This document shows, in pieces, positions 1-25,705 of a stretch of DNA of 64,000 nt. The number at the start of each line of letters is the position of its first letter. The first letter of the stretch is position 1. Both the position numbers and the translations under genes were made by a program. Location of the stretch: positions 59,096 through 123,095 of IMG/VR virus record IMGVR_UViG_3300029305_005988, one strand, 5' to 3'. The notes under the pieces were generated by a model. That model saw only the letters and a list, made by a program, of their open reading frames with translations. It was not told where the DNA came from and ran no database searches. This DNA comes from a virus. Its lineage: Duplodnaviria > Heunggongvirae > Uroviricota > Caudoviricetes.

Positions 1-72
1 TTATTTAATTCAATGGAAGAGCGTGATGCAGAATTTCGTAGAATATGGGATATTTTAAGCAAAGGCGCATAA
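1..72 (+). CDS. 3' end of upstream gene (partial, ...LSKGA*)
   Basis: open frame from window edge to TAA at 70-72, followed by terminator hairpins. Confidence 0.3.
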   Translation, partial: LFNSMEERDAEFRRIWDILSKGA

Positions 73-125
73 TGTGCGCCTTCTTTTTTCGGCCGGCCCG
101 CTTACCTACGCCGCGGGCCGTTTTA
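63..125 (+). terminator. tandem rho-independent terminators (two GC hairpins + T-runs)
   Basis: ggcgcataatgtgcgcc+ttctttttt then ggcccgc..gcgggccgtttta. Confidence 0.6.
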
Positions 126-181
126 TGCAATTTGCACAAATTAGCATCTTTTTTTCTTCAAAACTTTGTTACTTTTGCCTA

Positions 182-210
182 TTGACATTATCCCGCTTTT
201 ATGGTATAAT
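182..210 (+). promoter_or_regulatory. sigma70-like promoter TTGACA-17-TGGTATAAT (early class)
   Basis: ttgaca 182-187, tggtataat 202-210, RBS aaaggaaagggg before ATG 245. Confidence 0.6.
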
Positions 211-244
211 TAAGGTACAGTAAAGGAAAGGGGTACTACATACT

Positions 245-553
245 ATGATTAACATTCGTTCAATACTCAAACTCAAAAACAACGACGGCTTGACTCTCAA
301 GAAGGGCGCGCCCATCACCTACAAAAGCGGTTATCAGGTAGCGACCGAGGGTATAGAGTGCAAAACCGCAAGAGAGGCAATTAACGCGGTAAAGGCATAC
401 GGCGGTAACTGTGGAGTGTGGCTATCCGATGGCGTGTTTTATATCGATAAATCACATAGGGTCAACACAAAAAAGGAAGCGCTTGAAGTCGGTCGGGCGC
501 ATAATCAAATCTCCATTCTCCGTTGGCGCGATATGGGACTTGTCTATTGTTGA
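245..553 (+). CDS. hypothetical protein (102 aa)
   Basis: ORF with upstream consensus promoter and RBS. Confidence 0.55.
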   Translation: MINIRSILKLKNNDGLTLKKGAPITYKSGYQVATEGIECKTAREAINAVKAYGGNCGVWLSDGVFYIDKSHRVNTKKEALEVGRAHNQISILRWRDMGLVYC

Positions 554-618
554 CAAGTCCCGAGCCAAAACTTTGTGCAAAATGCCATATTGACAAAAGC
601 AAGGATATATGGTATAAT
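549..618 (+). promoter_or_regulatory. promoter with TTTGTGCAA box, TTGACA 590-595, TGGTATAAT 610-618 (second TTGACA at 549)
   Basis: motifs seen directly; drives 655-867. Confidence 0.55.
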
Positions 619-654
619 ATATATGTAAGATAAAGAAAGGAAAGGTACACACCT

Positions 655-867
655 ATGATTAAAATGGACATTCTCGATTTCGGTATTTATGAGGACGGCA
701 CGCATATCGCAGACTTTGACGATAAGGAAAGAGCCGTCAAATATGCAAGAGCCAACGCAACCACAAGAAAAAAGAATACCGTGGTCATTTGCAATTTCAC
801 GGGCGAGGTTATTGCTGAATATACCATCGTCACAAATACAGTAGTGAAAGAGTGGGTGGCGGACTAA
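655..867 (+). CDS. hypothetical protein (70 aa)
   Basis: ORF after promoter/RBS aaagaaaggaaagg. Confidence 0.5.
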
Positions 868-893
868 AATCCGCCCCTACAAGGGGGTACATA

Positions 894-1244
894 ATGAAAC
901 CATTAAATATTCGCAGAGGTCAAATTTACTACGCAGACTTATCACCTGTCATTGGAAGCGAACAAGGCGGTATGCGCCCAGTGCTTATCATTCAAAATGA
1001 TATAGGCAATAGTCATGCGCCCACGGTTATCGCGGCGGCTATCACCTCGCGCCTTTCAAAAGCAAGCCTTCCCACACATATCGAAATTCGCAAGTGCGGT
1101 TTGACGAAAGATAGCATTGTTCTTTTGGAACAGATTAGAACACTCGACAAGCGCAGACTTAAAGCGTATATGGGAGAACTTGACGAAAACACTATGGCAC
1201 AAATTGATAAGGCAATTATGATTAGCTTGGGGGTAGAGGTATGA
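894..1244 (+). CDS. mazF: MazF/PemK-family endoribonuclease toxin
   Basis: RGQIYYADL...[32 protein letters not shown] matches MazF/PemK core; ATG 894 with RBS. Confidence 0.8.
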
Positions 1245-1615
1245 AAATTTATATGGCAAGCGCAATGTTCACCGAAGAACAAAAGGAAAGAATAGATAAA
1301 CACGCAAGGCTCTTGAGGGCTATGGGGCATACAGTATATGTCCCCCACGAGTTCAAAGTTCCCGATGCAAAAGACCTAACCAATGAAGAATGGGCAAATG
1401 AGGTTTTCCTCGAAGATATTCATCAACTCGACGAGTGTGATGCTATCTATTATTTTTGCGAGGGGATGGAGGGTGACCTTGGCTCTGCTTGGGAATGTGG
1501 CTATGCCTATGCAAAAGGAAAACAGATATTCGTCGATGAATTATCATACAGCACTGAAATCTCTTTAATGGTGGCACAATGCTCCAGTAATGAAATTTCA
1601 AGTTATCAAAGTTAA
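1241..1615 (+). CDS. nucleoside 2-deoxyribosyltransferase / dNMP N-hydrolase (DNPH1/Rcl)-like
   Basis: [10 protein letters not shown]...[17 protein letters not shown] resembles NDT/Rcl fold signature. Confidence 0.55.
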
Positions 1616-1616
1616 G

Positions 1617-1680
1617 AGGGCGCCCGCCCTCTTTTCTTTTTTCCGACGGCTCGAAAACTAGGGTTCCGAGCCGTTTTATT
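1617..1680 (+). terminator. tandem terminators
   Basis: agggcgcccgccct+cttttc and cggctcg..cgagccgtttta. Confidence 0.55.
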
Positions 1681-1735
1681 CGTGGGCTAGCATTTTGCAC
1701 AAAAATCGGCGCAAAACTTTGGTGATTATTACCTA

Positions 1736-1764
1736 TTGACAAATCCCGATAAATGTGGTATAAT
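1736..1764 (+). promoter_or_regulatory. early promoter TTGACA/TGGTATAAT
   Basis: ttgaca 1736, tggtataat 1756. Confidence 0.5.
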
Positions 1765-1896
1765 AAGTATGTCAAGAGGAAGAGAGCACCCAAGCAACAG
1801 AACCACAGACCCCGACAGACACCAAGTCGACAAAGGTAAATGGATAGGGGCGAGAGGAACGGCACAGACCCTCTCACGAAAAAAAATGCATATTTT

Positions 1897-1935
1897 TTCA
1901 AAACCTCTTGACAAATACATAAAAGTATGGTATAA
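1897..1935 (+). promoter_or_regulatory. early promoter with UP-like ttttcaaaaacctc, TTGACA, TGGTATAAT
   Basis: cctcttgacaaatacataaaagtatggtataat. Confidence 0.6.
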
Positions 1936-1967
1936 TATATATACCAAAGGAAAGAGAGGAAATACTT

Positions 1968-2231
1968 ATGATTAAGAAATCTACTATCGAGGGCAAGAGC
2001 GCAAGTGCCTACTGTTTGATTGAGGATATTCTCTATCAAAACAAGGACTGCTATCTTACAAAAGAAGAAATCTATATGCGTATGCCTTGCGACGAAGATG
2101 GAGTTCCGCTTGTGACTATCGGCAGTTTGGAAAGTGCTTTGCGATGCTTGTGCCACACAAGAGAAATCGAGTGCGAGTATATCCGAGGCAGACGGCACTT
2201 TGCATATCGAGAAGCAAGAGAGCGAAGATAA
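1968..2231 (+). CDS. hypothetical protein (87 aa)
   Basis: ORF with promoter+RBS. Confidence 0.5.
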   Translation: MIKKSTIEGKSASAYCLIEDILYQNKDCYLTKEEIYMRMPCDEDGVPLVTIGSLESALRCLCHTREIECEYIRGRRHFAYREARERR

Positions 2232-2301
2232 TCGCTCTCATACATAAAAATAAAGGCGCGCACTAGAAAAAATTGGAAATGCGCGCAAAAGGAGAAGAAA
2301 T

Positions 2302-2625
2302 ATGGCAAAAATTATTCATCTTGAATACGACCTCATCGAGTTTGATGATGGCACTACAATCACCGCAGATCATTGTCAAGACTGTTGCGAGTGGAACTAT
2401 GCAGACTGTCAACAGCTTGATGATTTGGCAAGAGCCTACGATTTTGATACCAAACACTTGTTTTTTGAAGCGGTTGAAGAACAAGGATTTCGCTTTGGTG
2501 ACAATCCGTGGAGAATGTTTTTTGTTCCTTGTTATTCTTCACAGAATGGCTATTATTCAAGCGATATCGACATTTATCTCAACGGAGAAAAGAAACTCAA
2601 CTTTCTTTGCAAAGAAGATTTCTAA
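2302..2625 (+). CDS. hypothetical protein (107 aa, Cys-rich)
   Basis: ORF with RBS aaaaggagaagaaatatg. Confidence 0.5.
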   Translation: MAKIIHLEYDLIEFDDGTTITADHCQDCCEWNYADCQQLDDLARAYDFDTKHLFFEAVEEQGFRFGDNPWRMFFVPCYSSQNGYYSSDIDIYLNGEKKLNFLCKEDF

Positions 2626-2626
2626 A

Positions 2627-2662
2627 AGAGGGCGCAGAGTAATCTGCGCCTTTTGACTTTTA
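2627..2662 (+). terminator. rho-independent terminator
   Basis: gggcgcagagtaatctgcgcc+ttttgactttt. Confidence 0.6.
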
Positions 2663-2728
2663 TAAAATTTTATATTATAATATAAATGTAAAAAGAAAAT
2701 AAATAGAGATACAAGGAGGTCACGCGGT

Positions 2729-3031
2729 ATGAAGTATCACTTCATCCACGCTCTTGTCGTAACTCAATTTGAATCATCACTAACCCCTCTTGATTGGGAA
2801 ACCCTCTCGGCGCAAGACTATCCCCTTCACGCGCTTTATTGTGAAGAGTTGGGCGCCCTTCTTTTTCATTCTGACAATCAAAAAAATGATTGTTCGAATA
2901 TGATTTCATTCTTAAAGGAAATATTTAAAATTTTAAACATTCCTGCTGAATGGGAAAATAAAATTATAATTATGAGTGATGATGAAAATGAGTACAGCGC
3001 GCAAGACGTGTTGAAACACTTCAGCCATTAA
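2729..3031 (+). CDS. hypothetical protein (100 aa)
   Basis: ORF with RBS acaaggaggt. Confidence 0.5.
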   Translation: MKYHFIHALVVTQFESSLTPLDWETLSAQDYPLHALYCEELGALLFHSDNQKNDCSNMISFLKEIFKILNIPAEWENKIIIMSDDENEYSAQDVLKHFSH

Positions 3032-3159
3032 GCTGACGGACGAAAGCGGTCGCGCCTAGTCCGATTTTCCGCGACTTAGACCTCTTACACATTTGCCGCG
3101 AACTTTGTCGAATGTTCGAGGCTTTTTCTTTTTCCTGCAATTACCTATGCGCAATTTAA

Positions 3160-3205
3160 AGTGCCGGCCGGCGCCTTTGCGTTCGCGCGGCGCCGTTTTG
3201 TGCAT
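3160..3205 (+). terminator. terminator hairpin ggcgcc..ggcgcc + gtttt
   Basis: seen in sequence. Confidence 0.45.
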
Positions 3206-3254
3206 TTTGTATACTTCTCGCCATTTTTCGCGCGAAAGTTTGTGCAACATTACT

Positions 3255-3290
3255 ACTTGACATTTTCCCGATTGTATGGTATAATAATAA
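3255..3290 (+). promoter_or_regulatory. early promoter (TTTGTGCAAC box, TTGACA, TGGTATAAT)
   Basis: cttgacattttcccgattgtatggtataat. Confidence 0.5.
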
Positions 3291-3447
3291 TGTCAAGAGG
3301 GGAACCTCGTGCGGAGAAAACAGTGGCAAACATAGACTTGGAAAGCAGTAACCTTTGTGCGCACAAGGATAAACACAGAAACAAACGGTCTACACTACTA
3401 GGCGAGTATCGGAGATAAGAAAAATAGTTGCAAATATTTTTCGAAAA

Positions 3448-3482
3448 CCTCTTGACAAAACTACATACTTGTGGTATAATAT
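3448..3482 (+). promoter_or_regulatory. early promoter
   Basis: cctcttgacaaaactacatacttgtggtataat. Confidence 0.55.
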
Positions 3483-3595
3483 AAGTGTGAAAGAGAGGTA
3501 AACACTTATGATTATTGAAAATATCATTATGGCTACTTTATATATCATTTTAGGAATGGGAATTGAAGAAGTTATAAGGGAGATAATGGGAAAAA

Positions 3596-3778
3596 ATGAT
3601 TAAATGTCCAAATTGCGGTAGCACCGCACAACCCGAGCCTTTTGAGGTACAATATCATGAAGATGGTTGGACTATATATGTAGAGCGTTGGTATCGTTGT
3701 GGCTGTGGACACGGCTTTGTTACCTCTACAACCTACGAAAGTGATGGAGATGAGGAAATTATAGATGCGTGCATTTAG
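3596..3778 (+). CDS. zinc-ribbon protein (60 aa; CPNCG...CGCG); terminates at TAG (would extend 5 codons to TGA if TAG is sense)
   Basis: ORF, Cys pairs; stop is TAG, which is otherwise unused as stop in this window. Confidence 0.45.
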   Translation: MIKCPNCGSTAQPEPFEVQYHEDGWTIYVERWYRCGCGHGFVTSTTYESDGDEEIIDACI

Positions 3779-4019
3779 AACCTTTTTCAACCTTGACCGC
3801 CCTTATGAGTTCGATATCACAGACCTCACCGCCTTAATTTATACAATATGCGCCATAGGCGGTATGATGGGCGCAAACATGACAATACTATGGTGCATTG
3901 GCGCAACAATCGCAACCGCTTTCTGTTGGGAAGCGCGCAAAATCAACCTTGTAGTTCTCAATCTCGCCCTTTGGGTGATGAATATGTGGAACTTATTTCA
4001 AATGATAATCGGAGGTTAA
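3765..4019 (+). CDS. small membrane protein (84 aa)
   Basis: hydrophobic ORF overlapping previous stop. Confidence 0.45.
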   Translation: MRAFRTFFNLDRPYEFDITDLTALIYTICAIGGMMGANMTILWCIGATIATAFCWEARKINLVVLNLALWVMNMWNLFQMIIGG

Positions 4020-4177
4020 TATGTGGAAAATTAGAGTACACACAATAGATTGTCAAAGGGGATTTTATCTTACTCCAACTTTTAAAACAGAAGAAGAAGC
4101 AGTTGCCTATGCAGTAAAAACAGATGTTGCTTGGCGATTTAACGCCTACTGCACCTATGAGCAGAAAGGAGAATAAT
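4020..4177 (+). CDS. hypothetical small protein (52 aa)
   Basis: ATG directly after previous stop, RBS aggaggttaat. Confidence 0.35.
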
Positions 4178-4339
4178 ATGAAAGTCAAAACCTACATTTA
4201 TGAAGCCAATGGCTTTATTAAAGGTCGCATGGTAGCCAAAAACAAACGCGAGGTAAAAAAGCAAATTCTTAAAACCGTTGCACTGTTTTGTCCTACAAGA
4301 GGACTTGAATATATGAAGATTAAGAGGATAAAAGAATGA
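4178..4339 (+). CDS. hypothetical small protein (53 aa)
   Basis: ATG after RBS aaaggagaataat. Confidence 0.4.
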   Translation: MKVKTYIYEANGFIKGRMVAKNKREVKKQILKTVALFCPTRGLEYMKIKRIKE

Positions 4340-4554
4340 AAGCAAAATTCATACTTGAAAAAGACGAAAGTCACAAGATAAGACAAATGCTTGACGATAT
4401 TCCAATCGACCTTTGCAGATATGTAACTTGTCCCGACGAACTTGACGGTAACTGCGATGCCTGCCCCTTGCTTGCCATTTCAGACAGTTGGAGCAGAGGA
4501 TTGGAACTCCTTTGCGACCAGACAAGCGAAGCATTAAAAAAGATTGAGGGGTAA
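4336..4554 (+). CDS. hypothetical protein (72 aa)
   Basis: ORF, ATGA overlap. Confidence 0.45.
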   Translation: MKAKFILEKDESHKIRQMLDDIPIDLCRYVTCPDELDGNCDACPLLAISDSWSRGLELLCDQTSEALKKIEG

Positions 4555-4558
4555 AGAT

Positions 4559-4759
4559 ATGGAATATGTATATCTTATTTCCGACGAGGTTCACGGACTT
4601 TATTGTATTTGTGCAAACAAAGATAAGGCAACCGAAATTGTAGACGATATTAGTCATGGTTGTTATGGATTGCCAAAAGAAACCAAACCCGACTATGATA
4701 ATGAAAATTGTTATGGTTATGATGGTGCGGCTTCTTGGAAAAGAGTAGAGGTGGTTTAA
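4559..4759 (+). CDS. hypothetical protein (~66 aa)
   Basis: ORF after RBS gaggggtaaag. Confidence 0.4.
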   Translation: MEYVYLISDEVHGLYCICANKDKATEIVDDISHGCYGLPKETKPDYDNENCYGYDGAASWKRVEVV

Positions 4760-4800
4760 ACCACCTCTTTTCTTTGGTCGGCACGGCGGCGCCCGTCGCC
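4751..4800 (+). terminator. tandem terminators
   Basis: ggtggtttaaaccacc+tctttt and cggcacggcg..cgccctgccg+ttttt. Confidence 0.5.
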
Positions 4801-4885
4801 CTGCCGTTTTTGTGCAAATTGCACAATTCCACACCTTTTTTCGCCAAATGTTTGTGCAACTTGACGAAAAGAAATTTCCCAAAAC

Positions 4886-4946
4886 CGCTTGACATTCACC
4901 GCCTTTTGTGGTATAATATTATCGTAGTCAAGGGGCGAAAGGTTAA
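4886..4946 (+). promoter_or_regulatory. promoter + conserved leader (copy 1 of duplicated tggtataatattatcgtagtcaaggggcga)
   Basis: near-identical to 7222-7280. Confidence 0.5.
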
Positions 4947-4994
4947 CGGCAGAGAAAAACCGACCACCGCAACTCGAAAAAATTTTTCAAAAAC

Positions 4995-5035
4995 TTTTGA
5001 AAAACCCCTTGACAAATCATTCAAAGTATGATATA
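4995..5035 (+). promoter_or_regulatory. early promoter (cccttgacaaatc...tgatataat)
   Basis: seen. Confidence 0.5.
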
Positions 5036-5071
5036 ATATAAGAGCAGTAAGGAACAAGAGAGGAAAACCAA

Positions 5072-5509
5072 ATGACGATTTATTTTGATATGGACGGCAC
5101 TATTGCAGACCTCTATGGGGTACAAGGTTGGCTTGCTGACCTTGAAGCGCACAATCCTCGTCCGTATGAAGAAGCGCAAGTCATGCACAATATGTCCGCG
5201 CTTGCAAGAGCATTGAATACGGCACAGAGCAAGGGCGCACGCATAGGCATTATATCGTGGCTATCCAAGACCGCAACCGAGGACTATAACAAAGCGGTTG
5301 AAAAAGCCAAGCGCAAGTGGCTCAAAAAGCACCTTAAGTCCGTTCAGTTTGATGAAATCCATATCGTGCCGTATGGCACTCCAAAATCGTCCGTTGCCAA
5401 GAGCGTGGGCATACTGTTCGATGATGAGGAGCGCAACCGCGCCGAATGGAGTAAAGGACGCGCATATCCGCCCGAAAAAATCTTTGAAATTCTCAAAGAA
5501 ATTTCGTAA
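5072..5509 (+). CDS. HAD-superfamily 5'(3')-deoxyribonucleotidase (NT5C)-like
   Basis: N-terminal DMDGTIADL (DxDGT motif I) and ILFDDE motif. Confidence 0.55.
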   Translation: MTIYFDMDGTIADLYGVQGWLADLEAHNPRPYEEAQVMHNMSALARALNTAQSKGARIGIISWLSKTATEDYNKAVEKAKRKWLKKHLKSVQFDEIHIVPYGTPKSSVAKSVGILFDDEERNRAEWSKGRAYPPEKIFEILKEIS

Positions 5510-5608
5510 AACCTCTTGACAAATCCGTCAAGATGTGATATAATAATAATGTCGAGAGGGAGAGGAAGCAATCCCCTATGACAGAAAGAGAGGAAAAAGA
5601 AAAATCCA

Positions 5609-6346
5609 ATGAACATTCTTGTGTTTGACACCGAAACCGCTGGGTGCTGTACCCAAACTTTGTTAAATATCGGTTATTGCGTTGCCGATATTGACTTGAC
5701 CACATTCAAGTATCGCATACTCAAAGGTCGTGACTATCTTGTAGGCAAACACTACAAAAATCGTCTGTGGCTCTTGAACGATATGTTCGTCAAGGCAGAA
5801 AAACTTGCCAAGTTCGACTATAATGTTGAAAATGGCTCGGCAATTCTCCGCACCGAGAAGCAGATTTTCGAGCAAATGGCGCGCGATATTGACCGCTATG
5901 GTATTCAGTACGGCTTTGCGTATAACTGTCAATTTGACGAGGACAAATTCCGCAGAACCGCGACCGCGCTCAATCTCCTTAATCCGCTTGACAAAATCGA
6001 GGTTGTGGATATTTGGACGAACGCGCAACTTGCAATTTGCGCTACCGAGGACTATATCGCATTTTGCAACGAACACAATCTCCGTACCCCAAGTGGTAAG
6101 TATATCCCAACCTCTGTTGAGGGTGTAACCGCTTTCCTTAACAATGATAAAGAATTTGTTGAGGAACACACCGCGCTCTCCGATGTTCAATGGGAATTGC
6201 GTATCCTTTGCGAATTGGGTAAGAGAGGTTGTAATATCTTCCAAGTACCCACGCATAATGGCTGTCTCACTCCCGAAGGTGAATGGGTATTCCCATTCCA
6301 CAAGCGCAAGACCGAATTTGACGATGTAACCACGGGGAGAGAATAA
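5609..6346 (+). CDS. DEDDh (DnaQ-like) 3'-5' exonuclease
   Basis: Exo I VFDTETAG, Exo II YNCQFDEDKF, Exo III HTALSDV. Confidence 0.7.
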   Translation: MNILVFDTETAGCCTQTLLNIGYCVADIDLTTFKYRILKGRDYLVGKHYKNRLWLLNDMFVKAEKLAKFDYNVENGSAILRTEKQIFEQMARDIDRYGIQYGFAYNCQFDEDKFRRTATALNLLNPLDKIEVVDIWTNAQLAICATEDYIAFCNEHNLRTPSGKYIPTSVEGVTAFLNNDKEFVEEHTALSDVQWELRILCELGKRGCNIFQVPTHNGCLTPEGEWVFPFHKRKTEFDDVTTGRE

Positions 6347-6377
6347 TCTCTCCCCACAAAAAAAATAAAAAAATTTT

Positions 6378-6415
6378 CAAAAACCTATTGACAAATACCA
6401 AAAAGTATGGTATAA
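6378..6415 (+). promoter_or_regulatory. early promoter
   Basis: ttttcaaaaacctattgacaaataccaaaaagtatggtataat. Confidence 0.55.
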
Positions 6416-6491
6416 TATAAATGTAAACAAGAGGGAAACCTCAAAATAAAAATAATATGGGTTGCGACCTACCGCAAGAGAGGAAAAAATT

Positions 6492-6902
6492 ATGGCAGAA
6501 ATCAAGGAAATCAAGTACACGCAGAAGCAGATGTTCGAAGCAATCCTCGCAGAGACTGACCGCACCGACGAAATTGGCGGTATTCCGTCCGCAGTTTTCA
6601 AGGCGTTCGCAGAGAAGAAAATTGCGCAGTTGGAGAGTAAGTCGGGCAAGACGAGCGCAAAGCGCACCGAGGAACAGGACGCTTTCATGGAAATTATCCG
6701 CGATGTTCTCGCAGAGTATCCCGATGTCAAGGGTATGCAGTGCGGCGCGGTCGCCAAGGACGAGCGTATTGCTTCGTTCAAGTGGGCAGACGGCAAGGAA
6801 ACCTCGGCGCAGAGAGTGTCGGCTATGCTGAAGAAGTTGGCCGACTGCGGTGATGTGATTAAGACCACGGACAAGAAAGTCACCTACTTTCGCCTTGCAT
6901 GA
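6492..6902 (+). CDS. small-protein paralog family member (MAEIK...; family with 7475-7903 and 16508-16897)
   Basis: shared N-terminal MAE(I/K)K, central DILAEV..G.LTVG, C-terminal K.V.Y(F/Y).LA. Confidence 0.55.
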   Translation: MAEIKEIKYTQKQMFEAILAETDRTDEIGGIPSAVFKAFAEKKIAQLESKSGKTSAKRTEEQDAFMEIIRDVLAEYPDVKGMQCGAVAKDERIASFKWADGKETSAQRVSAMLKKLADCGDVIKTTDKKVTYFRLA

Positions 6903-6929
6903 GTGAGGGGCGCAAGCCCCTCTACATAT

Positions 6930-6999
6930 CGACGGGTAGTTTAGTGGTTAAAACAGTCCGTAGGAAGGACAGAGGTGAGTTCGAGGCTCACACCGTCGC
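6930..6999 (+). ncRNA. tRNA-like element (perfect T-arm gtgag/ttcgagg/ctcac, 6/7 acceptor; anticodon unclear, possibly AGG)
   Basis: cloverleaf-like fold seen by eye; no CCA. Confidence 0.3.
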
Positions 7000-7070
7000 A
7001 GAGCATTAAATCCAAAACCCCCTATGCGCAAGGAGCGGTGAGAAAGTGAGAATGCTCAACCCATGGGATA

Positions 7071-7138
7071 GACCTCTGCGACGGCAGAGGTCTTTTTTCT
7101 TTCGTCGGCTCAGTGGCGGTCGCCACTGAGCCGTTTTG
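7071..7138 (+). terminator. tandem terminators
   Basis: gacctctgcgacggcagaggtc+tttttt and cggctcagtggcggtcgccactgagccg+tttt. Confidence 0.65.
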
Positions 7139-7221
7139 TGTGTTTTTATGCAAATTGCACAATTTTTCCGCCAAAATCTGCCTAAATTTTGTGCAAATTA
7201 TTTTCCCATTTTCTATTGACA

Positions 7222-7280
7222 AATTTTCATTTTTGTGGTATAATATTATCGTAGTCAAGGGGCGAGGGTGAGTTAAAACC
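7222..7280 (+). promoter_or_regulatory. promoter + conserved leader (copy 2 of duplicated element)
   Basis: ttgacaaattttcatttttgtggtataatattatcgtagtcaaggggcgaggg. Confidence 0.5.
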
Positions 7281-7374
7281 TCGAAAAAAATCTCCTCATT
7301 CTTCAATGTGAAACAAATGCGATAAAGTAGCATTGAGAATAGTATCGCAAAAAATTTTTGAAAAACTTTTCAAA

Positions 7375-7412
7375 AACCCCTTGACAAAAGCCACGAAATG
7401 TGGTATAATATA
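7375..7412 (+). promoter_or_regulatory. early promoter
   Basis: ccccttgacaaaagccacgaaatgtggtataat. Confidence 0.55.
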
Positions 7413-7474
7413 AGTGTAGTAAGGGAGAGCCACTCCCCACTAACAAAAAATAAAAATAAAGAGAGGTAGAAAAA

Positions 7475-7903
7475 ATGGCAGAAAAGAAGATTACCAAGAG
7501 AGAGAAGAATGAACTCCTTATCGCCGTACTTAACGGCAGAGTTCCCACCGAGGACGAGAAGAATATGCTTATCGAGCATATCACCCACGAGAACGAACTC
7601 CTTGCTCGTAAGGGTAGCAAGTCCGCAACCGCAACCCCTGCACAGAAGGACGCGCTTGCCGTCAGCGAGATTATCAAGGATATTCTTGCCGAGGTCGAGG
7701 GTAAGGGTTTGACCGTAGGCGCAATCCTTAAGGACGAGCGCATCAAGTCCTATGTGCGCCACAATGGAGAGGGTGTGTCCTCGCAGATGGTCACCTCTAT
7801 CTTCTCCAAGAACCCCAAGGATTTCGTGCGTACCGTCGAGAAGAAGGTCGCATACTACGCCCTCGCTTATGGTGAGGTCGTAGACGAGGGTGAGGGGGAT
7901 TAA
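7475..7903 (+). CDS. small-protein paralog family member
   Basis: see 6492-6902. Confidence 0.55.
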   Translation: MAEKKITKREKNELLIAVLNGRVPTEDEKNMLIEHITHENELLARKGSKSATATPAQKDALAVSEIIKDILAEVEGKGLTVGAILKDERIKSYVRHNGEGVSSQMVTSIFSKNPKDFVRTVEKKVAYYALAYGEVVDEGEGD

Positions 7904-7944
7904 CCCCCCTCTCCCCACGGAGAAAAATTTTTTCAAAAAGTTTT

Positions 7945-7985
7945 ACCAAACCTCTTGACAAATAGCCAAAGGTATGGTATAATAT
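7945..7985 (+). promoter_or_regulatory. early promoter
   Basis: cctcttgacaaatagccaaaggtatggtataat. Confidence 0.55.
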
Positions 7986-8019
7986 ATATGTCAAGAGGAT
8001 AGAAAGAGAGGTAAACAGT

Positions 8020-8445
8020 ATGGCAAGTATGTATACCCCCTACACCTTAAAAGGTGGCAAGGTGGTCAATGTGCCGAATAAGGCGGTCGCCAATCTGCAA
8101 GCACAGTTGAAACTGTCAAGAGCCGAAGCGGTTGAGTTGTGGCTTTATGACGAGGGATATATCGAGTGTCCCGAAGCAGACGAGTTGACCGCCAAGGCAA
8201 AAGAGAATAAAGTATCTCATGGGGCGCGCGCCGAGAATAAGCAGAAAACGCAGAGAGAGCGCGTGGTGAAAGAGGACAAGGTCAAGGAAGCAATTATCCA
8301 AGCGGTAGCCGATATGCTCCCCAACCTCAATGCCGAGAATGTGATTATTGAGAAAAAGGGAAAACTTATCACCTTTACCGTGGGTGAGGATAAATTCAAG
8401 TTTGACCTTATCCGTCAGCGACCGCCCAAGGAAAGCAAGGGGTGA
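8020..8445 (+). CDS. hypothetical protein (141 aa, charged)
   Basis: ORF with RBS agagaggtaaacagtatg. Confidence 0.5.
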   Translation: MASMYTPYTLKGGKVVNVPNKAVANLQAQLKLSRAEAVELWLYDEGYIECPEADELTAKAKENKVSHGARAENKQKTQRERVVKEDKVKEAIIQAVADMLPNLNAENVIIEKKGKLITFTVGEDKFKFDLIRQRPPKESKG

Positions 8446-8485
8446 AAACCCCTTGCTACATAAAACGAAAGCGAGGAAGAAGAAA

Positions 8486-8695
8486 ATGGCTAAAACTATG
8501 GAATTTACTTGTCCCGAATGTGGCGAAGATATTTTCATTGACGAGGTTGATGCAACGGTTGAGGATATGGTTGCCTATATCAAAATGACTTGTTGCAGTT
8601 GTGGAGCAGAATGGACTGATACCTTTCGCTTGACCTATAACGGATACGCTATGGGCAGTGAAGTTTGGGATAAGAATGGAGAGAAAATCGTATGA
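8486..8695 (+). CDS. zinc-ribbon protein (69 aa)
   Basis: CPECG...CCSCG; RBS gaggaagaagaaaatg. Confidence 0.5.
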   Translation: MAKTMEFTCPECGEDIFIDEVDATVEDMVAYIKMTCCSCGAEWTDTFRLTYNGYAMGSEVWDKNGEKIV

Positions 8696-8928
8696 CGGCA
8701 TATGAAGAATTGAAAGCGTGGTGCGAGAAACACCTTGGAGATAAATATAGAATAGAGATAATACCTGAAACAACTGAATATTATACAACAATGTATATTC
8801 TCAAGGGTGAGGAAGAGATATTTTACGCCGCCTTTGATGCCGAAGAATATTTCATTGGAATGAGCAGTGCCACTTGGGACGAGTTCCAAGAACATATTGA
8901 ATTGGCAGAAAGAGAGGGAAAAATATAA
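8692..8928 (+). CDS. hypothetical protein (78 aa)
   Basis: ORF, ATGA overlap. Confidence 0.5.
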   Translation: MTAYEELKAWCEKHLGDKYRIEIIPETTEYYTTMYILKGEEEIFYAAFDAEEYFIGMSSATWDEFQEHIELAEREGKI

Positions 8929-8948
8929 GCGCCAAACGCACTAAAAGA

Positions 8949-8976
8949 AAACAGAGGGTAAAGCCCTCTGTTTTTT
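8949..8976 (+). terminator. rho-independent terminator
   Basis: cagagggtaaagccctctg+ttttttat. Confidence 0.65.
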
Positions 8977-8989
8977 ATCTGCACCAATC

Positions 8990-9210
8990 GCGTTCACATC
9001 TTGTTCACAATTCGACGGGTCGCTAGCCATCGGCTAGCCCCGACTTCCACATTCCACTACCATTCCATATATACGCGATCGAAAAATGGTTGTTTCAATT
9101 TCACTCTCATTTTCCCGCAAACCTAGACCCTTGCTCTATACCGGGCGCCTGAACTAGCGCGGGCCGCGGACAATCGCGAAAGCCCGTCTAAGGCCTAGAC
9201 TAGCACCTTC
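8990..9210. repeat. GC-rich palindrome/iteron-like non-coding block (gctagccatcggctagc, cgcgggccgcg, cctagac x2)
   Basis: local GC well above the flanks; palindromes seen directly. Confidence 0.4.
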
Positions 9211-9587
9211 CATACTTTATACGCCAACTTTTGCTGTTTGTTTCATTTAATTATTTTCCTATAATTAGCATTTTTATCAATTTTTTCGCATAATATGTGA
9301 ATATTTTATCAAAAATGCCATGTTTTAATGTATTTTCCTTGTTTTAGTTCTTTCAATAGTGCTAAAATTTAATCACAGAAACAAAAATATGACAATGCGC
9401 GCCTAGATTCAAGAGAAAAAGTTGATTTTTAGTGAAAATTATGGTATAATATAAGTAGAAAATGAATAGTGGCGCAATAGCAAAGAAGGAGGTTGCTGTT
9501 GGGTCAAGAGAAGAAAGTTTTTAGGGAAGCCGTGACTTGGGGGTAGTGTAGGTGCGCATTTCCAAAATTTGGTAAAAATGTAAAAAT

Positions 9588-9618
9588 ATGGAAAGGCGCT
9601 TAATTCGCGCCTTTCTTT
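9588..9618. terminator. bidirectional terminator hairpin aaaggcgcttaattcgcgccttt
   Basis: T/A runs on both sides; closes minus-strand module. Confidence 0.5.
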
Positions 9619-9701
9619 AGTCTCCAGTCTGACACTAATATTGGACAGTCTCCAAACTCTGACTTAAAGCGCAAACGCGCCGCAGCAAAGTATCCTTTTT
9701 C

Positions 9702-10274
9702 TTTAGAGATGTCTTCGCCCTGCTCTTGACGATAAAAAGCATTAGCTGCTTCAGACTCAGATATATGTTCTTCAAACATAATTTGGCGCCAACGTTCTAG
9801 AATCTATTGATCAAGAGGTTCGTATGTGCTATACCATACCCAGCGCCTAACGCCATTAGATTCTCCATATTCATCAAATACGGGACCAACATAGCGCTTA
9901 CTTACACCCTGTACATTATCATGCCCATACTTCTCTCTGCCAAAAGCGCATAACGCTTCACGAGTAGTTTTAGCTTTGCTATTAGGCTTAAACTCAGTAC
10001 CAAGCGCAGCAATAGTAAACATCTTGTAATCTTCTTGTTTTTGCGCCGTAGAAATTAAATTCTTGCGCGGTAAAGGTTGATAGGTGCCATAAATCTCATT
10101 AATTTTAATACGAATTGGGCGCCCATCCAATAATTCATAGTCATAGAAGTTGCTAATATGTTCTAACAACTCTTCTCTACGGGACTCCCATTGATTCTTT
10201 TTAATACCTGTCAATAGCCAGAATTCTTTTTTAAAGTCATAAATGTGTCCTACTTCAATTTGCATATTATTCAC
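9702..10274 (-). CDS. hypothetical protein; in-frame TAG at 9804-9806 (157 aa to TAG, ~190 aa if read through to TAA 9702)
   Basis: ORF 9804-10274 plus 34 open codons after TAG; RBS aaaggagtgaataat. Confidence 0.45.
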
Positions 10275-11386: not shown

Positions 11387-12099
11387 TAAAAATTAAATCC
11401 AGCAATTTTCTTCTTTATCTCATCCTCATCTTGATCGTGGACGCAGTCCACGGGAGGGATAGACGAAGTCTTTCCCGACAAATTCTAATTATAATCATAA
11501 TTCTAATTATAATCATAATTCTAATAAGGAAACTTTGGAAACTTGGAAACATTTCCAGTTTCCTTAATTCCATCACAACTTTCCAAACTTTCTTGGAAAC
11601 TTTCAGAAACATTATCTACAATTTCCATATTTCCTAATGTTTCCAAACTTTCTTGGAAATTTCCAATGTTTCCAGAAATTTCTGGAAACTTTCCTAATGT
11701 TTCCTTATTTTCCAGTAAATGTGGAAACTCTGTGCGGATTTTTGTAAACATTTTTGATACTGCTGGCGGCTGAACTCCAAGCTCGCGGGCAATTGCCGCC
11801 TGTGTCATACCACTATTTTTCATTTCAATAATTCTACGATATTTCTCTTCAGAAGCAGCTATTTTAGCATCGTACCTATTCTTGCTTTGCGCAATTCTAT
11901 CTACATATCCTTCAAGAGCATCTTCAATATTCATATCATCACTACTAATATCTCCAGTAAGTATAGCTTCTAAAAAACTAATTGCATACTCTCCACCTTT
12001 AACAGGGTCTCTTTGATACCACTTCTTTGCCGTTTCAAACATCTTTCCATATACAATACCACTTTTTCTTACAGGATTGTTTTTAAACTCTTTAATCAT
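11387..12099 (-). CDS. HTH-containing protein (MTQAAIARELGV) with repetitive C-terminal tail; TAG at 11521-11523 (core 11521-12099 = 192 aa)
   Basis: ORF 11521-12099; if TAG is sense, extends through 18-bp tandem repeats (QNYDYN x2) to TAA abutting next RBS. Confidence 0.5.
11461..11520. repeat. 18-bp tandem repeat aattctaattataatcat x~3
   Basis: seen directly. Confidence 0.7.
11530..11700. repeat. repeat-rich block (ttccaaactttcttggaaa / tttccagaaatttctggaaa variants)
   Basis: multiple direct/inverted copies seen; encodes SFQESLE-type repeats. Confidence 0.6.
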
Positions 12100-18850: not shown

Positions 18851-18925
18851 GCGGGATTAACTCAGCGGAAGAGTAATCGCCTTCTAAGCGATAAGCCAAA
18901 GGTTCGAATCCTTTATCCCGTGCCA
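18851..18925 (+). tRNA. tRNA-Arg(TCT)
   Basis: cloverleaf by eye: stem atcgc/gcgat, loop cttctaa; T-loop ggttcgaatcc; CCA encoded. Confidence 0.6.
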
Positions 18926-19024
18926 GCATCCCAGAACTAGCCTTAATATATTATGCGACTTGCGATAATAAAGTCTGACATAATATATGCTGTCAGAGGC
19001 GGCAGCGGTTCTGGGGTAACATCT

Positions 19025-19100
19025 GCGCCCCTAGCTCAGACGGAAGAGCGGCTGACTCTTAATCAGTAGGTCCAGGGTTCGAATCCCTGGGGGCGCACCA
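19025..19100 (+). tRNA. tRNA-Lys(CTT)
   Basis: loop ctcttaa; T-arm caggg/ttcgaat/ccctg; CCA. Confidence 0.6.
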
Positions 19101-19411
19101 GAGGGAGACCTCAAGGGAATGATTCCGATGCCCGCTTAGCAGCGAAAAAAGGCGTGTTACCGTACTCGATAACAAACGGGGTTTTGCAATGGGTATTTGC
19201 TCCTTATAAACAACCCATAGGGAAGTCGTGGTCCCTAAAGGCTAGCTGGCTAACCACAACTCAAGAAAGTTCCACGCTTGGCTTGGCGGCAAAAGGTGGC
19301 GGTATGTATGGTTACCGAAAAAGTATCATATAGGGCGATAGAGGGACTGAAGCCTCTATAGTGGAGTTCAAGCCTCACTGTACAAGGTTTAGCCAACCAG
19401 CTTGAATTTAT

Positions 19412-19485
19412 ACTGGATTAGTTTAGCGGAAGAACGGGGCGCTACGGACGCTCAGACAAGGGTTCAACTCCTTTATCCAGTGCCA
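19412..19485 (+). tRNA. tRNA-Arg(ACG)
   Basis: loop ctacgga; acceptor actggat/atccagt; CCA. Confidence 0.6.
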
Positions 19486-19558
19486 TACACAACCGACGGA
19501 CAAGGCTTTGGCGCATGAAACAAGGCGGTGGGATGCGAGTGGTTAGGTTGTGTAATTT

Positions 19559-19635
19559 GGGCCACTAGCTCAGTTGGTCAGAGCATCCGGCTCATAACCG
19601 GACGGTCCAAGGTTCAAGTCCTTGGTGGCCCACCA
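19559..19635 (+). tRNA. tRNA-Met(CAT) elongator-type (or Ile-lysidine)
   Basis: loop ctcataa; G1-C72; CCA. Confidence 0.6.
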
Positions 19636-19666
19636 ATACATATAAAAATCAAAAGGAGAGAAGATA

Positions 19667-19816
19667 ATGAAGCCACTTGAAATTAAAGAGTCTAAAGAGC
19701 GAAGAAAAGAGCGGGTCCGTAACTCGGCTTCTCTCCGCACAAGAGTCGTTGAAAGTAAGAAGAAATATAATCGCAAGCGTCAAAAGGCGCGCGACCGTCG
19801 CTCTATGGAGGATTGA
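19667..19816 (+). CDS. very basic 49-aa protein (bS21-like?)
   Basis: MKPLEIKESKERRKERVRNSASLRTRVVESKKKYNRKRQKARDRR; RBS aaaaggagagaagataatg. Confidence 0.35.
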   Translation: MKPLEIKESKERRKERVRNSASLRTRVVESKKKYNRKRQKARDRRSMED

Positions 19817-19817
19817 A

Positions 19818-20096
19818 ATGACTTATTATCACGGCACTTCTGATATATTTGAAATGGGTACTTATATACTACCCGCCTCTTGCACTCATGTTTTACGAGA
19901 AGATTGGCGTAAAAAAGATTTAGATATAGTATTTTCTACTATCTCTTATAAATCAGCTTATATGTATGCCAAGAAGGCAGTTGAAAAGTATGGAGGTGCG
20001 CCAGTGGTATATCGCATTATTCCTCTTGGTAATGTACATTATCGTGGCGGTATAGAATACGGTTCTAATATTGCAGTTATAGTTGCTAAAGAGTAA
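19818..20096 (+). CDS. Arr-like mono-ADP-ribosyltransferase mini-protein (92 aa)
   Basis: MTYYHGTSDIFEMGTY... and VVYRIIPLG resemble Arr YHGT / YIVEPTG motifs (from memory). Confidence 0.35.
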   Translation: MTYYHGTSDIFEMGTYILPASCTHVLREDWRKKDLDIVFSTISYKSAYMYAKKAVEKYGGAPVVYRIIPLGNVHYRGGIEYGSNIAVIVAKE

Positions 20097-20171
20097 AAAT
20101 TTTTTCATTTTTAATTAAATCATTAAAAGTAATTTTAATATAAAAATACCCCACTCAGAAAGGAGAAGCTT

Positions 20172-20417
20172 ATGGGATACAAAAGAAGTCAAGAACAAAG
20201 AAGGCGAGATGAGCGCACCTATTCTGAAACTAAAACTTGGTATGGTAAAGGGGTATGGTATGATAAAGAAAAAGGCATTTATCGTAGATATTCATTACCT
20301 GAGCGTACGCGTTTTGTAAAGCGTAAATGTAACCGCGCAGTTCGTCGATATAAAGGAGATTTAACTACTAAAGGAGCGTATCGTAAAGTTTCTGAGTATT
20401 GGTGGGAAATCTGGTAA
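20172..20417 (+). CDS. basic Arg/Lys-rich protein (81 aa)
   Basis: ORF+RBS aaaggagaagcttatg. Confidence 0.4.
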   Translation: MGYKRSQEQRRRDERTYSETKTWYGKGVWYDKEKGIYRRYSLPERTRFVKRKCNRAVRRYKGDLTTKGAYRKVSEYWWEIW

Positions 20418-20425
20418 TTCATATA

Positions 20426-20498: not shown

Positions 20499-20603
20499 GT
20501 TCCTTTAAAGATCTTCATAGTGACCATCGGCGCATTTATTGATTTTATAAAAAAATTATGATATAATAAATTGTAAAATGAAAGAGGGAAAGAGAGGGAA
20601 AAA

Positions 20604-25265: not shown

Positions 25266-25280
25266 CTTTCCACCAAGATA

Positions 25281-25703: not shown

Positions 25704-25705
25704 TT

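Follow-up and report, generated by a model that had tools for sequence, protein, structure and literature searches.

A tandem-promoter intergenic cassette with a helically phased putative operator box in the presumed early region of an uncultivated gut phage

How is transcription arranged in a phage region where much the same intergenic cassette returns between one group of small genes and the next? The question is raised by a 64,000-nt stretch of DNA (IMG/VR virus record IMGVR_UViG_3300029305_005988, positions 59,096 to 123,095; Caudoviricetes), hereafter called the window, whose left end carries such a cassette. An initial annotation had read it as paired terminators, a palindromic TGCAA box, an upstream (UP)-like tract, one consensus promoter and a conserved leader, always in the same order, and had proposed the box as an operator for a dimeric regulator acting on every early unit. 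Our analysis showed that the cassette can hold two tandem promoters of different classes, that the box, TTGTGCAA, accompanies only one of these classes, where it is locked to one face of the DNA helix, and that the start of the first transcript is complementary to the -35 region of the second promoter.

Positions 1-8950 contain about 21 small open reading frames (ORFs; 31-245 aa), every one on the plus strand, with Shine-Dalgarno (SD) sequences of the AGAGAGG type. A bidirectional-looking terminator at 8948-8974 closes the region, and beyond it both the coding strand and the G+C content shift. In a contig of the same phage (L284) the block reaches at least 2.5 kb further left than the window does. 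It is fairly probable that 1-8950 and this leftward extension are a one-directional early block, of the 'host-takeover' type, belonging to an uncultivated lytic phage of about 130 kb.

The consensus promoters reported by the initial annotation were readily recovered, as the window holds 15 perfect TTGACA-N17-TATAAT sequences against 0.08 expected. Thirteen of these lie at 182-7983, all on the plus strand and all with an extended -10 TG. When all promoters were aligned on the -35 hexamer, two classes emerged. Class 1 promoters (-35 at 182, 590, 1736, 3257, 4889 and 7216) have TTGTGCAA boxes upstream and no A-tract UP element, whereas class 2 promoters (-35 at 1908, 3452, 5009, 5516, 6388, 7381 and 7955) have TTTTCAAAAACCYC directly against TTGACAAA. 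Four cassettes are tandem, with a class 1 promoter (P1) followed 120-195 bp downstream by a class 2 promoter (P2). The one-promoter order described earlier had merged the two. The true order runs from a double terminator through the boxes, P1 (TTGACAtt...TGGTATAAT) and the leader ATAATGTCAAGAGG to a variable spacer of 60-150 nt, TTTTCAAAAACCYC, P2 (TTGACAAAT...TATAAT), a purine-rich leader and the gene. Both the UP-like tract and the conserved leader thus exist as described but had been assigned to the wrong promoter, since the leader starts the P1 transcript and lies upstream of the tract of P2. The seventh base after the -10, which we took as the inferred start (+1), is G at 11 of the 13 promoters, with an A/T-rich hexamer before it.

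At about -56 to -40, class 2 promoters have the tract A(5-7)TTTTSAAAAAC, which lies within 1 nt of the Escherichia coli UP-element consensus AAAWWTWTTTTnnAAAA. It reads A7-TTTT-C-A5 at -56 to -40 of the promoter at 6388, is repeated in tandem (TTTTSAAAAAC, 11-bp period) in cassettes E and F, and is kept in relatives.

All 13 promoters could be assigned to positions within the block. P1-A (TTGACA-17-TGGTATAAT, 182-210) directly serves g245 (245-553), and the class 1 promoter at 590-618, in the cassette at 573-618, serves g655, a MazF-like gene and a deoxyribosyltransferase gene. In cassette C, P1-C (1736-1764) is followed by the UP-like tract TTTTTTCAAAACCTC and P2-C (1908-1936), which serves g1968; tract and promoter together (1885-1936) are 94% identical in the relative L214. 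Cassette D holds P1-D (3257-3285) and P2-D (3452-3480), the latter with TTTTCGAAAACCTC upstream. In cassette E, P1-E (4889-4917) precedes a segment (4976-5037) made of phased A/T tracts (TTTTCAAAAAC TTTTGAAAAAC), CCCC and P2-E (5009-5037), which serves an NT5C-like gene. Finally, P1-F (7216-7244) is paired with P2-F (7381-7409), which serves g7475, a winged-helix candidate. The other class 2 promoters are internal: the one at 5516-5544, without terminator or box, serves the gene at 5609-6346, the one at 6388-6416, with a full UP-like tract, serves g6492 and a tRNA-Pro, and the one at 7955-7983 serves g8020 and the genes downstream. None of these three (5516, 6388 and 7955) has a strong terminator ahead. 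Because the boxes occur only at class 1 promoters and the class 2-only promoters have no strong terminator upstream, the early block is a series of terminator-delimited operons, each headed by a box-bearing P1, with P2-type promoters acting as second and internal promoters.

The box itself is strongly enriched. In the window TTGTGCAA occurs 12 times against 3.1 expected, with ten of the copies at 132-7196. The 2,609 nt of intergenic DNA of 1-8950 hold nine copies against 0.13 expected (maximum of 2 in 500 dinucleotide shuffles), and TTGTGCAA is the most over-represented 8-mer there, promoter hexamers aside. The palindrome TGCAAWTTGCA is present three times (126, 4813 and 7149) against 0.16 expected. 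The enrichment of the TGCAA box over shuffled intergenic sequence, on which the initial annotation had staked its proposal, was therefore confirmed for TTGTGCAA. The dyad has the form TTGTGCAA-W-TTGCACAA, the centres of its half-sites being 9 bp apart. Only the copy at 4810-4826 matches the full 17-bp palindrome TTGTGCAAATTGCACAA perfectly; those at 123-139 and 7146-7162 have one mismatch each.

Exact boxes are found at six of six class 1 promoters and at none of the seven of class 2, that is, at 6 of the 13 promoters overall. Every one of them lies upstream of the -35, and none overlaps the core promoter or follows it. In cassette A the palindrome TTATGCAA-T-TTGCACAA (123-139, one mismatch to the perfect 17-mer) has its dyad centre at about -86 relative to P1, and a degenerate proximal site, TTTGTTACTTTTGCCTA (166-181, plus strand), abuts the -35, in a form comparable to the clade consensus TTTGTGCAAwwTGcCTA-TTGACA. 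The next cassette has a proximal plus-strand box TTGTGCAA (573-580) separated by 9 bp from the promoter at 590-618. Cassette C carries a reverse-oriented box TTGCACAA (1695-1702) and a degenerate proximal site (1718-1735), and the whole block (1695-1735) is invariant in the relatives L214 and L216. The corresponding segment of cassette D (3170-3247) comprises hairpin 2 (3170-3194), an imperfect palindrome (3198-3214) and a proximal box TTGTGCAA (3240-3247) with a 9-bp gap. Cassette E (4810-4859) combines the perfect TTGTGCAAATTGCACAA (4810-4826) with a forward box (4852-4859) at a 29-bp gap from the -35 and is near-invariant in L214 and L216, and cassette F (7146-7196) combines the palindrome TTATGCAAATTGCACAA (7146-7162) with a forward box (7189-7196) at a 19-bp gap.

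These gaps follow a rule. Box phasing was measured in clade loci retrieved without any box pattern, where forward boxes showed gaps to the -35 of 8-9 (n=25), 18-19 (n=10) and 29 bp (n=9), with a vector strength of 0.52 at a 10-bp period, and reverse boxes gaps of 32-33 (n=9), 42-43 (n=14), 52-53 (n=5) and 62-63 bp (n=5), with a vector strength of 0.82 at the same period. The resulting dyad centres, at about -43.5, -53.5, -64, -76.5, -86.5, -96.5 and -106.5, all fall on one face of the helix. The boxes of the window obey the same phasing, with gaps of 9, 9, 19 and 29 bp and of 33, 42, 53 and 62 bp. In other clade members the box is embedded in the composite AAAAnTTTGTGCAAwwTGcCTA-TTGACA, which can be read as TTGTGCAA-w-wTGCcTAt, an imperfect palindrome whose promoter-side half touches the -35. 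The dyad symmetry, the enrichment, the confinement to early intergenic DNA, the near-invariance among relatives of about 75% identity and the helical quantisation support the view that the box is a putative operator of a sequence-specific dimeric protein communicating with RNA polymerase. Its geometry, upstream of the -35 with the core left free, appears activator- or modulator-like and not that of a classical repressor. The dimeric-regulator proposal thus survives in part: the site is dyadic, enriched, conserved and phased, but it does not belong to every early unit. With boxes at class 1 promoters alone, a protein bound to them could neither shut down nor activate the early region as a whole. 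A box-associated antisense promoter was discarded by inspection, as no -10-like hexamer stands at the correct spacing in either orientation.

The same architecture is widespread. In exact-pattern scans of IMG/VR, more than 119 contigs had the 17-bp palindrome and 97 had the class 2 signature; many of these contigs measure 120-170 kb. The contigs fetched by motif shared early proteins with the window, namely the NT5C-like protein (71 contigs), the 245-aa g5609 product (68), g8020 (31) and g245 (28). As these early proteins recur in contigs retrieved by a DNA motif alone, the motif-bearing contigs are one large clade of gut phages of about 130 kb. The close relatives L214, L215 and L216, with about 75% nucleotide identity, are syntenic with the window yet mosaic: they share its cassettes and promoters but differ by replacement, insertion or deletion of the genes lying between, and homology breaks off at promoters or start codons. 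In orthologous cassettes near-invariance extends to the T-run, to both boxes with the intervening sequence, to the UP-like tract, to the two core promoters and to roughly 20 nt at the start of the P1 transcript, whereas the body of the P1-P2 spacer is unalignable. This slot is sometimes filled, by a small ORF in cassette C of L214 and in cassette D of L216, and in the filled versions P1 has an ordinary purine-rich SD leader in place of GTCAAGAGG. Cassettes E and F of the window are evident paralogues. The contig of L214 (135 kb) begins inside the early block.

Across the clade the box is patchy. It occurs 12 times against 0.6 expected in L231, seven times in L227/L228 and six times in L221, and is absent in L220, L229 and L230, each of which has 21-28 consensus promoters on the plus strand; host RNA polymerase therefore does not require it. 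Such patchiness speaks against a generic element of the UP type and for a lineage-specific factor. L231 and L221 also have boxes that adjoin degraded -35 hexamers (CTAGACA), as in activator-dependent promoters. Two further arrangements were observed. Upstream of the window in the same phage, L284 carries double-hairpin cassettes (420-620 and 1770-2020) with another box family, TTGTGAACA-N2-TTGTAAA and ATGAACA / TGTTCAT, together with a TTGTGCAA-type box at 1343-1398; there may be two operator specificities in this phage, and two winged-helix paralogues are encoded in the window. In L238, L244, L266, L275, L278 and others, the box-promoter composite has a GC-rich hairpin right after the -10 and a divergent promoter upstream, which looks like a different recurrent regulatory unit with the same box.

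A host regulon was also considered for the box. Scanning 596 Gb of bacterial genomes for TTTGTGCAANNTGNCTATTGACA (composite TTTGTGCAAnnTGnCTATTGACA) gave 59 sites against about one expected. All were in gut or rumen contigs of metagenome-assembled genomes (MAGs), many with implausible bin taxonomy and phage-like promoter density, with the exception of one Christensenella-type promoter lineage. The host regulon was rejected, as the sites look phage-borne or mobile and the Christensenella lineage corresponds to about the one chance match expected. This lineage, found in Christensenella and other Clostridia MAGs (L235, L246, L248, L264, L265 and L271), shares a chromosomal-looking promoter, TTTGTGCAAAATGACTATTGACA, with an ORF whose product begins MQRIYLD downstream; although chance accounts for about one match, it could be a genuine host site of the box-binding factor. 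A literature search with the strings TTGTGCAA and TTGCACAA returned only primer and eukaryotic matches. To our knowledge the host motifs of Spo0A (TGTCGAA), Rex (TTGTGAA-N4-TTCACAA), CRP/FNR, CodY and LexA are unlike the box in sequence or spacing.

The second distinctive property of the cassette concerns the P1 leader. In the k-mer table the P1 transcript start, GTCAAGAGG, is the reverse complement of CCTCTTGAC, which consists of the CCTC flank and the first five bases of the P2 -35. As RNA, GUCAAGRGG exactly complements CCYCUUGAC at the P2 -35. Folding of the four predicted P1 transcripts returned a pair probability of 0.95-1.0 for the closing helix, leaving no unpaired 5' nt in cassettes C and D and three in E and F. 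The closing pairs are GAGG/CCTC in C and D and GGGG/CCCC in E and F. On the plus strand, the 5' arm GUCAAGAGG of leader C (1771-1779) pairs with CCUCUUGAC (1904-1912) with probability 0.99-1.0 around an unconserved body (1771-1912 overall), positions 3292-3300 of leader D pair with 3448-3456, GUCAAGGGG of leader E (4927-4935) pairs with CCCCUUGAC (5005-5013) in the G:C state of the covarying pair, and positions 7254-7262 of leader F pair with 7377-7385.

Covariation was evaluated on 64 clade tandem units having the invariant core GTCAAG...CTTGAC, with 60 distinct units used for the formal pair count. At the first variable pair the 64 units showed A:T in 24, G:C in 30, A/C in 5, G/T in 3 and A/A in 2, and cognate pairs lengthened the helix beyond non-cognate ones (permutation p < 0.0002). 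For pair 10:27 the distinct units gave GC 27, AU 23, GU 3 and other combinations 7, and the observed double changes were reached in 0 of 500 shuffles. In-register cells were paired in 93.7% of cases, against at most 56% when the partner strand was slid. Both pair states occur inside nine single loci, and for 11 units the nearest neighbour, judged by the unpaired context, is in the opposite state. Rarer helix extensions (GAGGG/CCCTC, GGGGA/TCCCC, GAGGTT/AACCTC and AAGAAG/CTTCTT) were also seen. A CYCTTGACA sequence lies within 260 nt downstream of 71% of the promoters with a GTCARGRG leader and of 4% of the others (odds ratio 57, p ~3e-61). The evidence for selected pairing is good, resting on one informative pair, and an RNA helix is the likeliest form that the pairing would take.

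With such a helix, the long leader of an empty slot, which is untranslated, would be closed and its 5' terminus base-paired, probably shielding it from 5'-end-dependent decay, by analogy with the stabilisation of bacterial mRNA by 5'-terminal base pairing (PMC3997798). The predicted accessibility of the downstream ribosome-binding site is 0.55-0.80 with the helix and 0.50-0.67 without it. Alternatively, the helix might neutralise the anti-SD-like CCUCUU or mark a processing site. Searching the leaders against Rfam, only tRNAs reached the gathering score, and the best permissive matches in 1-9600 had E = 0.4-0.5, far below threshold. The inter-promoter segments were rejected as conserved small RNAs, being unconserved in relatives. 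A 68-aa ORF proposed by the gene caller at 1769-1975, from the ATG of ATGTCAAGAGG, was likewise dismissed, as cassettes E and F have no ATG, the length is not conserved and the segment diverges freely. A reading of the leader as a stabilising SD sequence (STAB-SD) was downgraded, since folding predicts that the SD-like arm has no unpaired base in tandem units.

Predicted terminators precede the operon-head promoters of most cassettes. The pairing of hairpins with T-runs claimed earlier holds in cassettes A, C, E and F, which fold well (z = -3.7 to -7.7), but is weak in cassette D (about 3100-3194, z ~0). On the plus strand, cassette A (62-120, z = -4.3) has hairpin 1 at 62-82 with a T-run and the GC-rich hairpin 2 at 94-120 followed by TTTT at 121-124, cassette C (1614-1675, z = -3.7) has hairpins at 1614-1633 and 1645-1675, then TTTT, cassette E (4747-4806, z = -5.3) at 4747-4768 and 4779-4806, and cassette F (7070-7133, z = -7.7) at 7070-7093 and 7106-7133. 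In these four, hairpin 2 lies 55-110 bp upstream of P1. It had been said to be always cggctc...gagccg, a sequence that we found in cassettes C and F only; the common feature is a GC-rich stem ending in GCCG and followed by TTTT. Among relatives the stems of hairpin 2 differ in sequence and keep a GC-rich helix, indicating structural conservation by covariation. The stem of cassette A is wholly different in L214 and L216, with a GC-rich hairpin and TTT retained, the stem of cassette C has CTCG/CGAG against CACG/CGTG in L216, and the stems of cassette E also covary.

As to the protein that might bind the box, a crude phylogenetic profile of 26 box-rich and 22 box-free, promoter-rich loci singled out, besides the protein used for retrieval, the paralogous family g6492/g7475, present in 23 of the former and 6 of the latter (p ~2e-5). 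The family has 349 unannotated members. The AlphaFold model of g7475 (mean predicted local distance difference test, pLDDT, 84) shows an N-terminal helical part and a C-terminal helix-helix-helix-beta-hairpin domain, whose best PDB matches are the winged-helix dimeric repressors of the BlaI (DNA complex included), MecI, ArsR/SmtB, NolR, PagR and HlyU group; these matches are weak (E ~0.05, probability 0.99, about 75 aligned residues). We regard g6492/g7475 as the best candidate box binder, with a host protein as the other possibility.

Taken together, these data are best explained, in our judgement and with somewhat better than even confidence, by a modular cassette that divides the early block into short operons. 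Each operon would be closed by an intrinsic terminator, with the second GC-rich hairpin and T-run, part of the next cassette, serving as backup and insulation. P1 would be a perfect extended -10 sigma-A promoter starting at G and provided with one to three TTGTGCAA half-sites or the 17-bp palindrome on one helix face. A dimeric protein would bind the boxes cooperatively and touch RNA polymerase, most likely as a stand-in for an UP element that tunes or boosts P1 and not as an on/off repressor. P2, having the same core hexamers with a near-consensus UP element and CCYC, would be constitutive because it is box-free and would act as a second tandem promoter and internal booster. The P1-P2 slot would take either a small gene or a non-conserved spacer, and in the empty state the first 9-11 nt of the P1 RNA (GUCAAGRGG) would pair with CCYCUUGAC, so that the long 5' untranslated region is closed and its paired 5' terminus probably shielded from 5'-end-dependent decay by RppH and RNase J. 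Being repeated and conserved, the cassettes would also act as recombination points at which related phages swap early genes.

A bolder version may be proposed only tentatively. The cassette might be a self-contained 'gene-slot' system, in which the -35 flank CCYCUUGAC doubles as an RNA-clamp arm so that an emptied slot closes on itself, and a factor reads the phased TTGTGCAA array to set operon-head output separately from the constitutive UP-driven promoters. If true, this would be an undescribed two-tier, recombination-tolerant control grammar of a large gut-phage clade, with a new transcription-factor/operator pair.

The box could instead be the operator of a phage early repressor, for example g6492/g7475, that accumulates and then shuts the operon-head promoters at the early-to-middle switch, by cooperative binding or by looping of the distal palindromes to the site next to the -35, like phi29 p4 at early promoters. 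Consensus P1 promoters, which need no activation, would suit such a protein, but seven of the 13 consensus promoters are box-free, including the P2 found 120-195 bp downstream of four of the six P1, and the shut-off would be ineffective. The proximal site overlaps the first -35 base and the distal-proximal spacings are whole helical turns, as in looping operators; the box is, however, never over or downstream of the core promoter, and the nearest sites of cassettes E and F have their centres at -64 or -54, too distant for occlusion. The resemblance of g7475 to dimeric BlaI/MecI and ArsR/SmtB repressors, the occurrence of its family in 23/26 box-rich against 6/22 box-free loci and the location of both paralogues in the two units headed by the best palindromes speak for a repressor, whereas the fold matches are weak (E ~0.05) and boxes are not commoner upstream of winged-helix genes than of other early genes. 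On balance we regard the repressor as rather unlikely.

Two explanations dispense with a dedicated factor. Cassette duplication and gene conversion in a recombination module of the promoter-early stem-loop (PeSL) type might have conserved box, leader and CCYC flank with no binding or pairing at all, as suggested by the paralogy of cassettes E and F, by the relatives that hold the cassettes and exchange the genes between them with breakpoints at promoters, and by PeSLs themselves, which share the composition of stem-loop and consensus early promoter and the same behaviour (PMC4122927). This seems improbable to us, since the 8-mer is exact in phages whose shared proteins are 30-40% identical and whose flanks are unalignable, its distance from the -35 is quantised in helical turns, it is missing at all class 2 promoters, which are equally repeated, and leader and flank bases switch jointly and repeatedly within single genomes. 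Very improbable, in our view, is that the box is a host-specific variant UP element read by RNA polymerase itself, through the alpha C-terminal domain or sigma. The proximal copy at -38 to -52 does occupy the UP-element position, and the absence of an A-tract UP element from box promoters and its presence at box-free ones suggest that the two are alternatives. Yet the box is a G+C-containing palindrome with copies as distant as -106, clade members with 21-28 consensus promoters per strand per 20 kb lack it, and in the 596 Gb of bacterial genomes the composite occurred only in phage- or mobile-looking MAG contigs and in one Christensenella lineage, about the one match expected by chance. A dimeric protein that contacts polymerase or its own bound copies and tunes the operon-head promoters is favoured over a master repressor, as we infer from a site that is dyadic, strictly upstream, phase-locked and core-free, and from seven box-free consensus promoters that would keep firing.

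Several points weigh against this tuning cassette. The P1 promoters of the window are already consensus, and the need for an activator is not obvious. The covariation comes essentially from one variable pair, the six core pairs being fixed by the selection filter, and the same leader is found at the class 2 promoters 5516, 7955 and perhaps 6388 without a downstream partner. The hairpins of cassette D fold weakly, as noted above. The association of g6492/g7475 with box-rich phages is confounded by relatedness, and a proximity test for autoregulation was negative, with a box within 450 nt upstream of 25% of the winged-helix genes, 24% of the g5609 family and 27% of the NT5C-like genes. The transcription starts, the early timing and the efficiency of the terminators are predictions from sequence, and the bin labels of MAGs, the only clue to the host, are a weak hint.

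These labels, mostly Clostridia, indicate that the host is probably a member of the gut Clostridia. A megablast of 1-8200 against GenBank phages gave no match and thus no close nucleotide relative, and a 128.9-kb metagenomic contig encodes a protein identical to one early gene product of the window. Most early-block ORFs match no family. The exceptions are 894-1244, which encodes a MazF/PemK-like toxin, 1241-1615, for a nucleoside 2-deoxyribosyltransferase, and 5072-5509, for an NT5C-like nucleotidase; with g245, g1968, g6492, g7475 and g8020 as queries, sequence searches of Pfam, PHROG and PDB were uninformative. The toxin gene (Pfam E = 1e-34) stands directly behind a 70-aa ORF (655-867), a possible antitoxin, and the segment 655-1244 is missing in the relative L214. 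Past the early block, a non-coding stretch of 650 bp (8950-9600) leading to the minus-strand genes is about 77% conserved in L214 (10199-10860) and could be a boundary element, such as a terminal-repeat edge or an origin. The minus-strand ORF that follows (9603-10274) has a single in-frame TAG (9804-9806), after which the frame stays open for 66 codons, and could reflect readthrough, recoding or a pseudogene; the sole suppressor-like tRNA seen reads TGA, not TAG. Further on, tandem repeats of an 18-mer (AATTCTAATTATAATCAT, x2.5, 11481-11525) and of a 30-mer with TTTCC/GGAAA units (x2.5, 11629-11704) adjoin a minus-strand ORF (11521-12099) with a helix-turn-helix-like segment. These repeats are iteron-like, and the independent contig L284 stops here.

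The remainder of the window includes at least 24 tRNA genes and a replication module with topoisomerase II subunits, an NAD-dependent DNA ligase, an RNA ligase, a DnaB-like helicase, a primase and RecJ. The PHROG matches of the replication genes were generic only (topoisomerase II, DnaB, primase, NAD ligase and RecJ), and there are no structural genes in the window. ARAGORN placed 24 tRNAs in an array at 18851-31734 and at 42221-42319, and additional Rfam tRNA matches were found at 20425-20495, 23076-23198 and 23855-23926. A tRNA with anticodon TCA (26200-26275) was called 'SeC' and is possibly an opal suppressor, and the odd tRNA at 42221-42319 has either a 4-base anticodon call or an intron. 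An 829-aa ORF (32561-35050) gave a match to the shoulder domain of the Major Vault Protein (PF11978, E = 2e-24) and a weak one to a vault repeat, which is unusual in a phage. The tRNA and replication region (16329-57621) also shows a third promoter type (for example at 16329, 20823, 29430, 31831, 36663, 42893, 54977, 55451 and 57593), with TTGACT or TTGAAA, an extremely A/T-rich 17-nt spacer (..aaaaaatttt..) and TGTTATAAT, without boxes or UP/CCYC tract; these may be middle promoters or merely weaker sigma-A promoters.

The early regions of uncultivated gut phages consist almost entirely of ORFans. The grammar set out here is machine-readable, comprising the double terminator, the phased TTGTGCAA box, P1, the closing leader and the UP element with P2, and is found again in hundreds of contigs. 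It can serve to delimit early operons, to predict transcription starts and to find early genes in metagenomic phages. The cassettes also offer very strong, compact and insulated promoter and terminator parts for Clostridia-type hosts. Beyond this, the phased box suggests a specific protein-DNA interaction, for which a winged-helix family is the candidate, and the pairing of the leader with the -35 region would make a single sequence both a DNA promoter element and a structural element of the upstream transcript. Current understanding is not overturned, as most of the cassette is ordinary phage early-gene wiring, and terminator/promoter cassettes and consensus early promoters are well known. 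Two features are apparently undescribed, as far as our literature search could find: the phase-locked TTGTGCAA array restricted to operon-head promoters and the covarying pairing of the P1 5' end with the P2 -35 region.

The cassette and the block can be compared with several known systems. For the whole early block, the functional analogue is the host-takeover module of phage SPO1, reportedly set out by Stewart and colleagues in 1998, to be taken as an analogy of organisation. We know of no TTGTGCAA-type box in that module, which has TF1 sites. It occupies about 10-12 kb at one end of a large Firmicute-type phage genome, and its small early genes, some of them for potentially toxic proteins, form short operons whose sigma-A promoters and ribosome-binding sites are unusually strong (PMC6873191). 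The block described here resembles it in the cluster of small genes, the 13 consensus promoters, the short terminator-delimited operons and the presence of a potentially toxic protein, the MazF/PemK-like one; between SPO1 gp37-60 and the early-block ORFs, no protein homology and no common Pfam or PHROG family were detected.

At the level of single elements, the class 2 tract resembles the UP elements and curved A-tract DNA of the E. coli rrnB P1 and phage SP82 Alu156 promoters, which are said to have been characterised by Estrem and colleagues in 1998 and by McAllister and Achberger in 1988-89. The tract is a putative UP element in its consensus match and in the 11-bp phasing of its A/T tracts, and differs in the invariant CCYC between tract and -35. 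Class I and II activators act from positions such as -41.5, -61.5 and -72.5 for CRP, and lambda cI acts comparably at PRM. The box is likewise dyad-symmetric, lies on one helical face upstream of the -35 and overlaps the -35 edge in its closest position, although the target promoters of the window are consensus and not weak, and the motif is unrelated.

The P1 leader recalls the 5'-terminal stem-loop stabilisers and STAB-SD sequences of ompA, aprE and cryIIIA (reviewed in PMC3997798), with its predicted helix leaving 0-3 unpaired 5' nt and its SD-like 5' arm (AAGAGG). Here, however, 80-155 nt lie inside a long-range helix whose 3' arm coincides with the -35 region of the following promoter, and the SD-like sequence is predicted to be sequestered and not free for 30S binding.

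The closest described entity is the PeSL of T4-type phages, in which a near-perfect TTGACA-N17-TATAAT early promoter has a stem-loop immediately ahead of it and an SD sequence behind it (PMC2839356, PMC4122927). PeSLs repeat between small ORFans in hyperplastic regions, mark the breakpoints of insertions, deletions and replacements between close relatives, and are implicated in modular gene exchange (PMC4122927). The present cassettes likewise have a stem-loop upstream of their own near-consensus promoter and cluster at indel or replacement breakpoints among relatives. They differ in belonging to another phage clade, probably with a host of another phylum, in their double terminators and two tandem promoter classes, and in having in addition a phased palindromic box and an RNA helix, predicted by folding, that would join the P1 5' end to the P2 -35.

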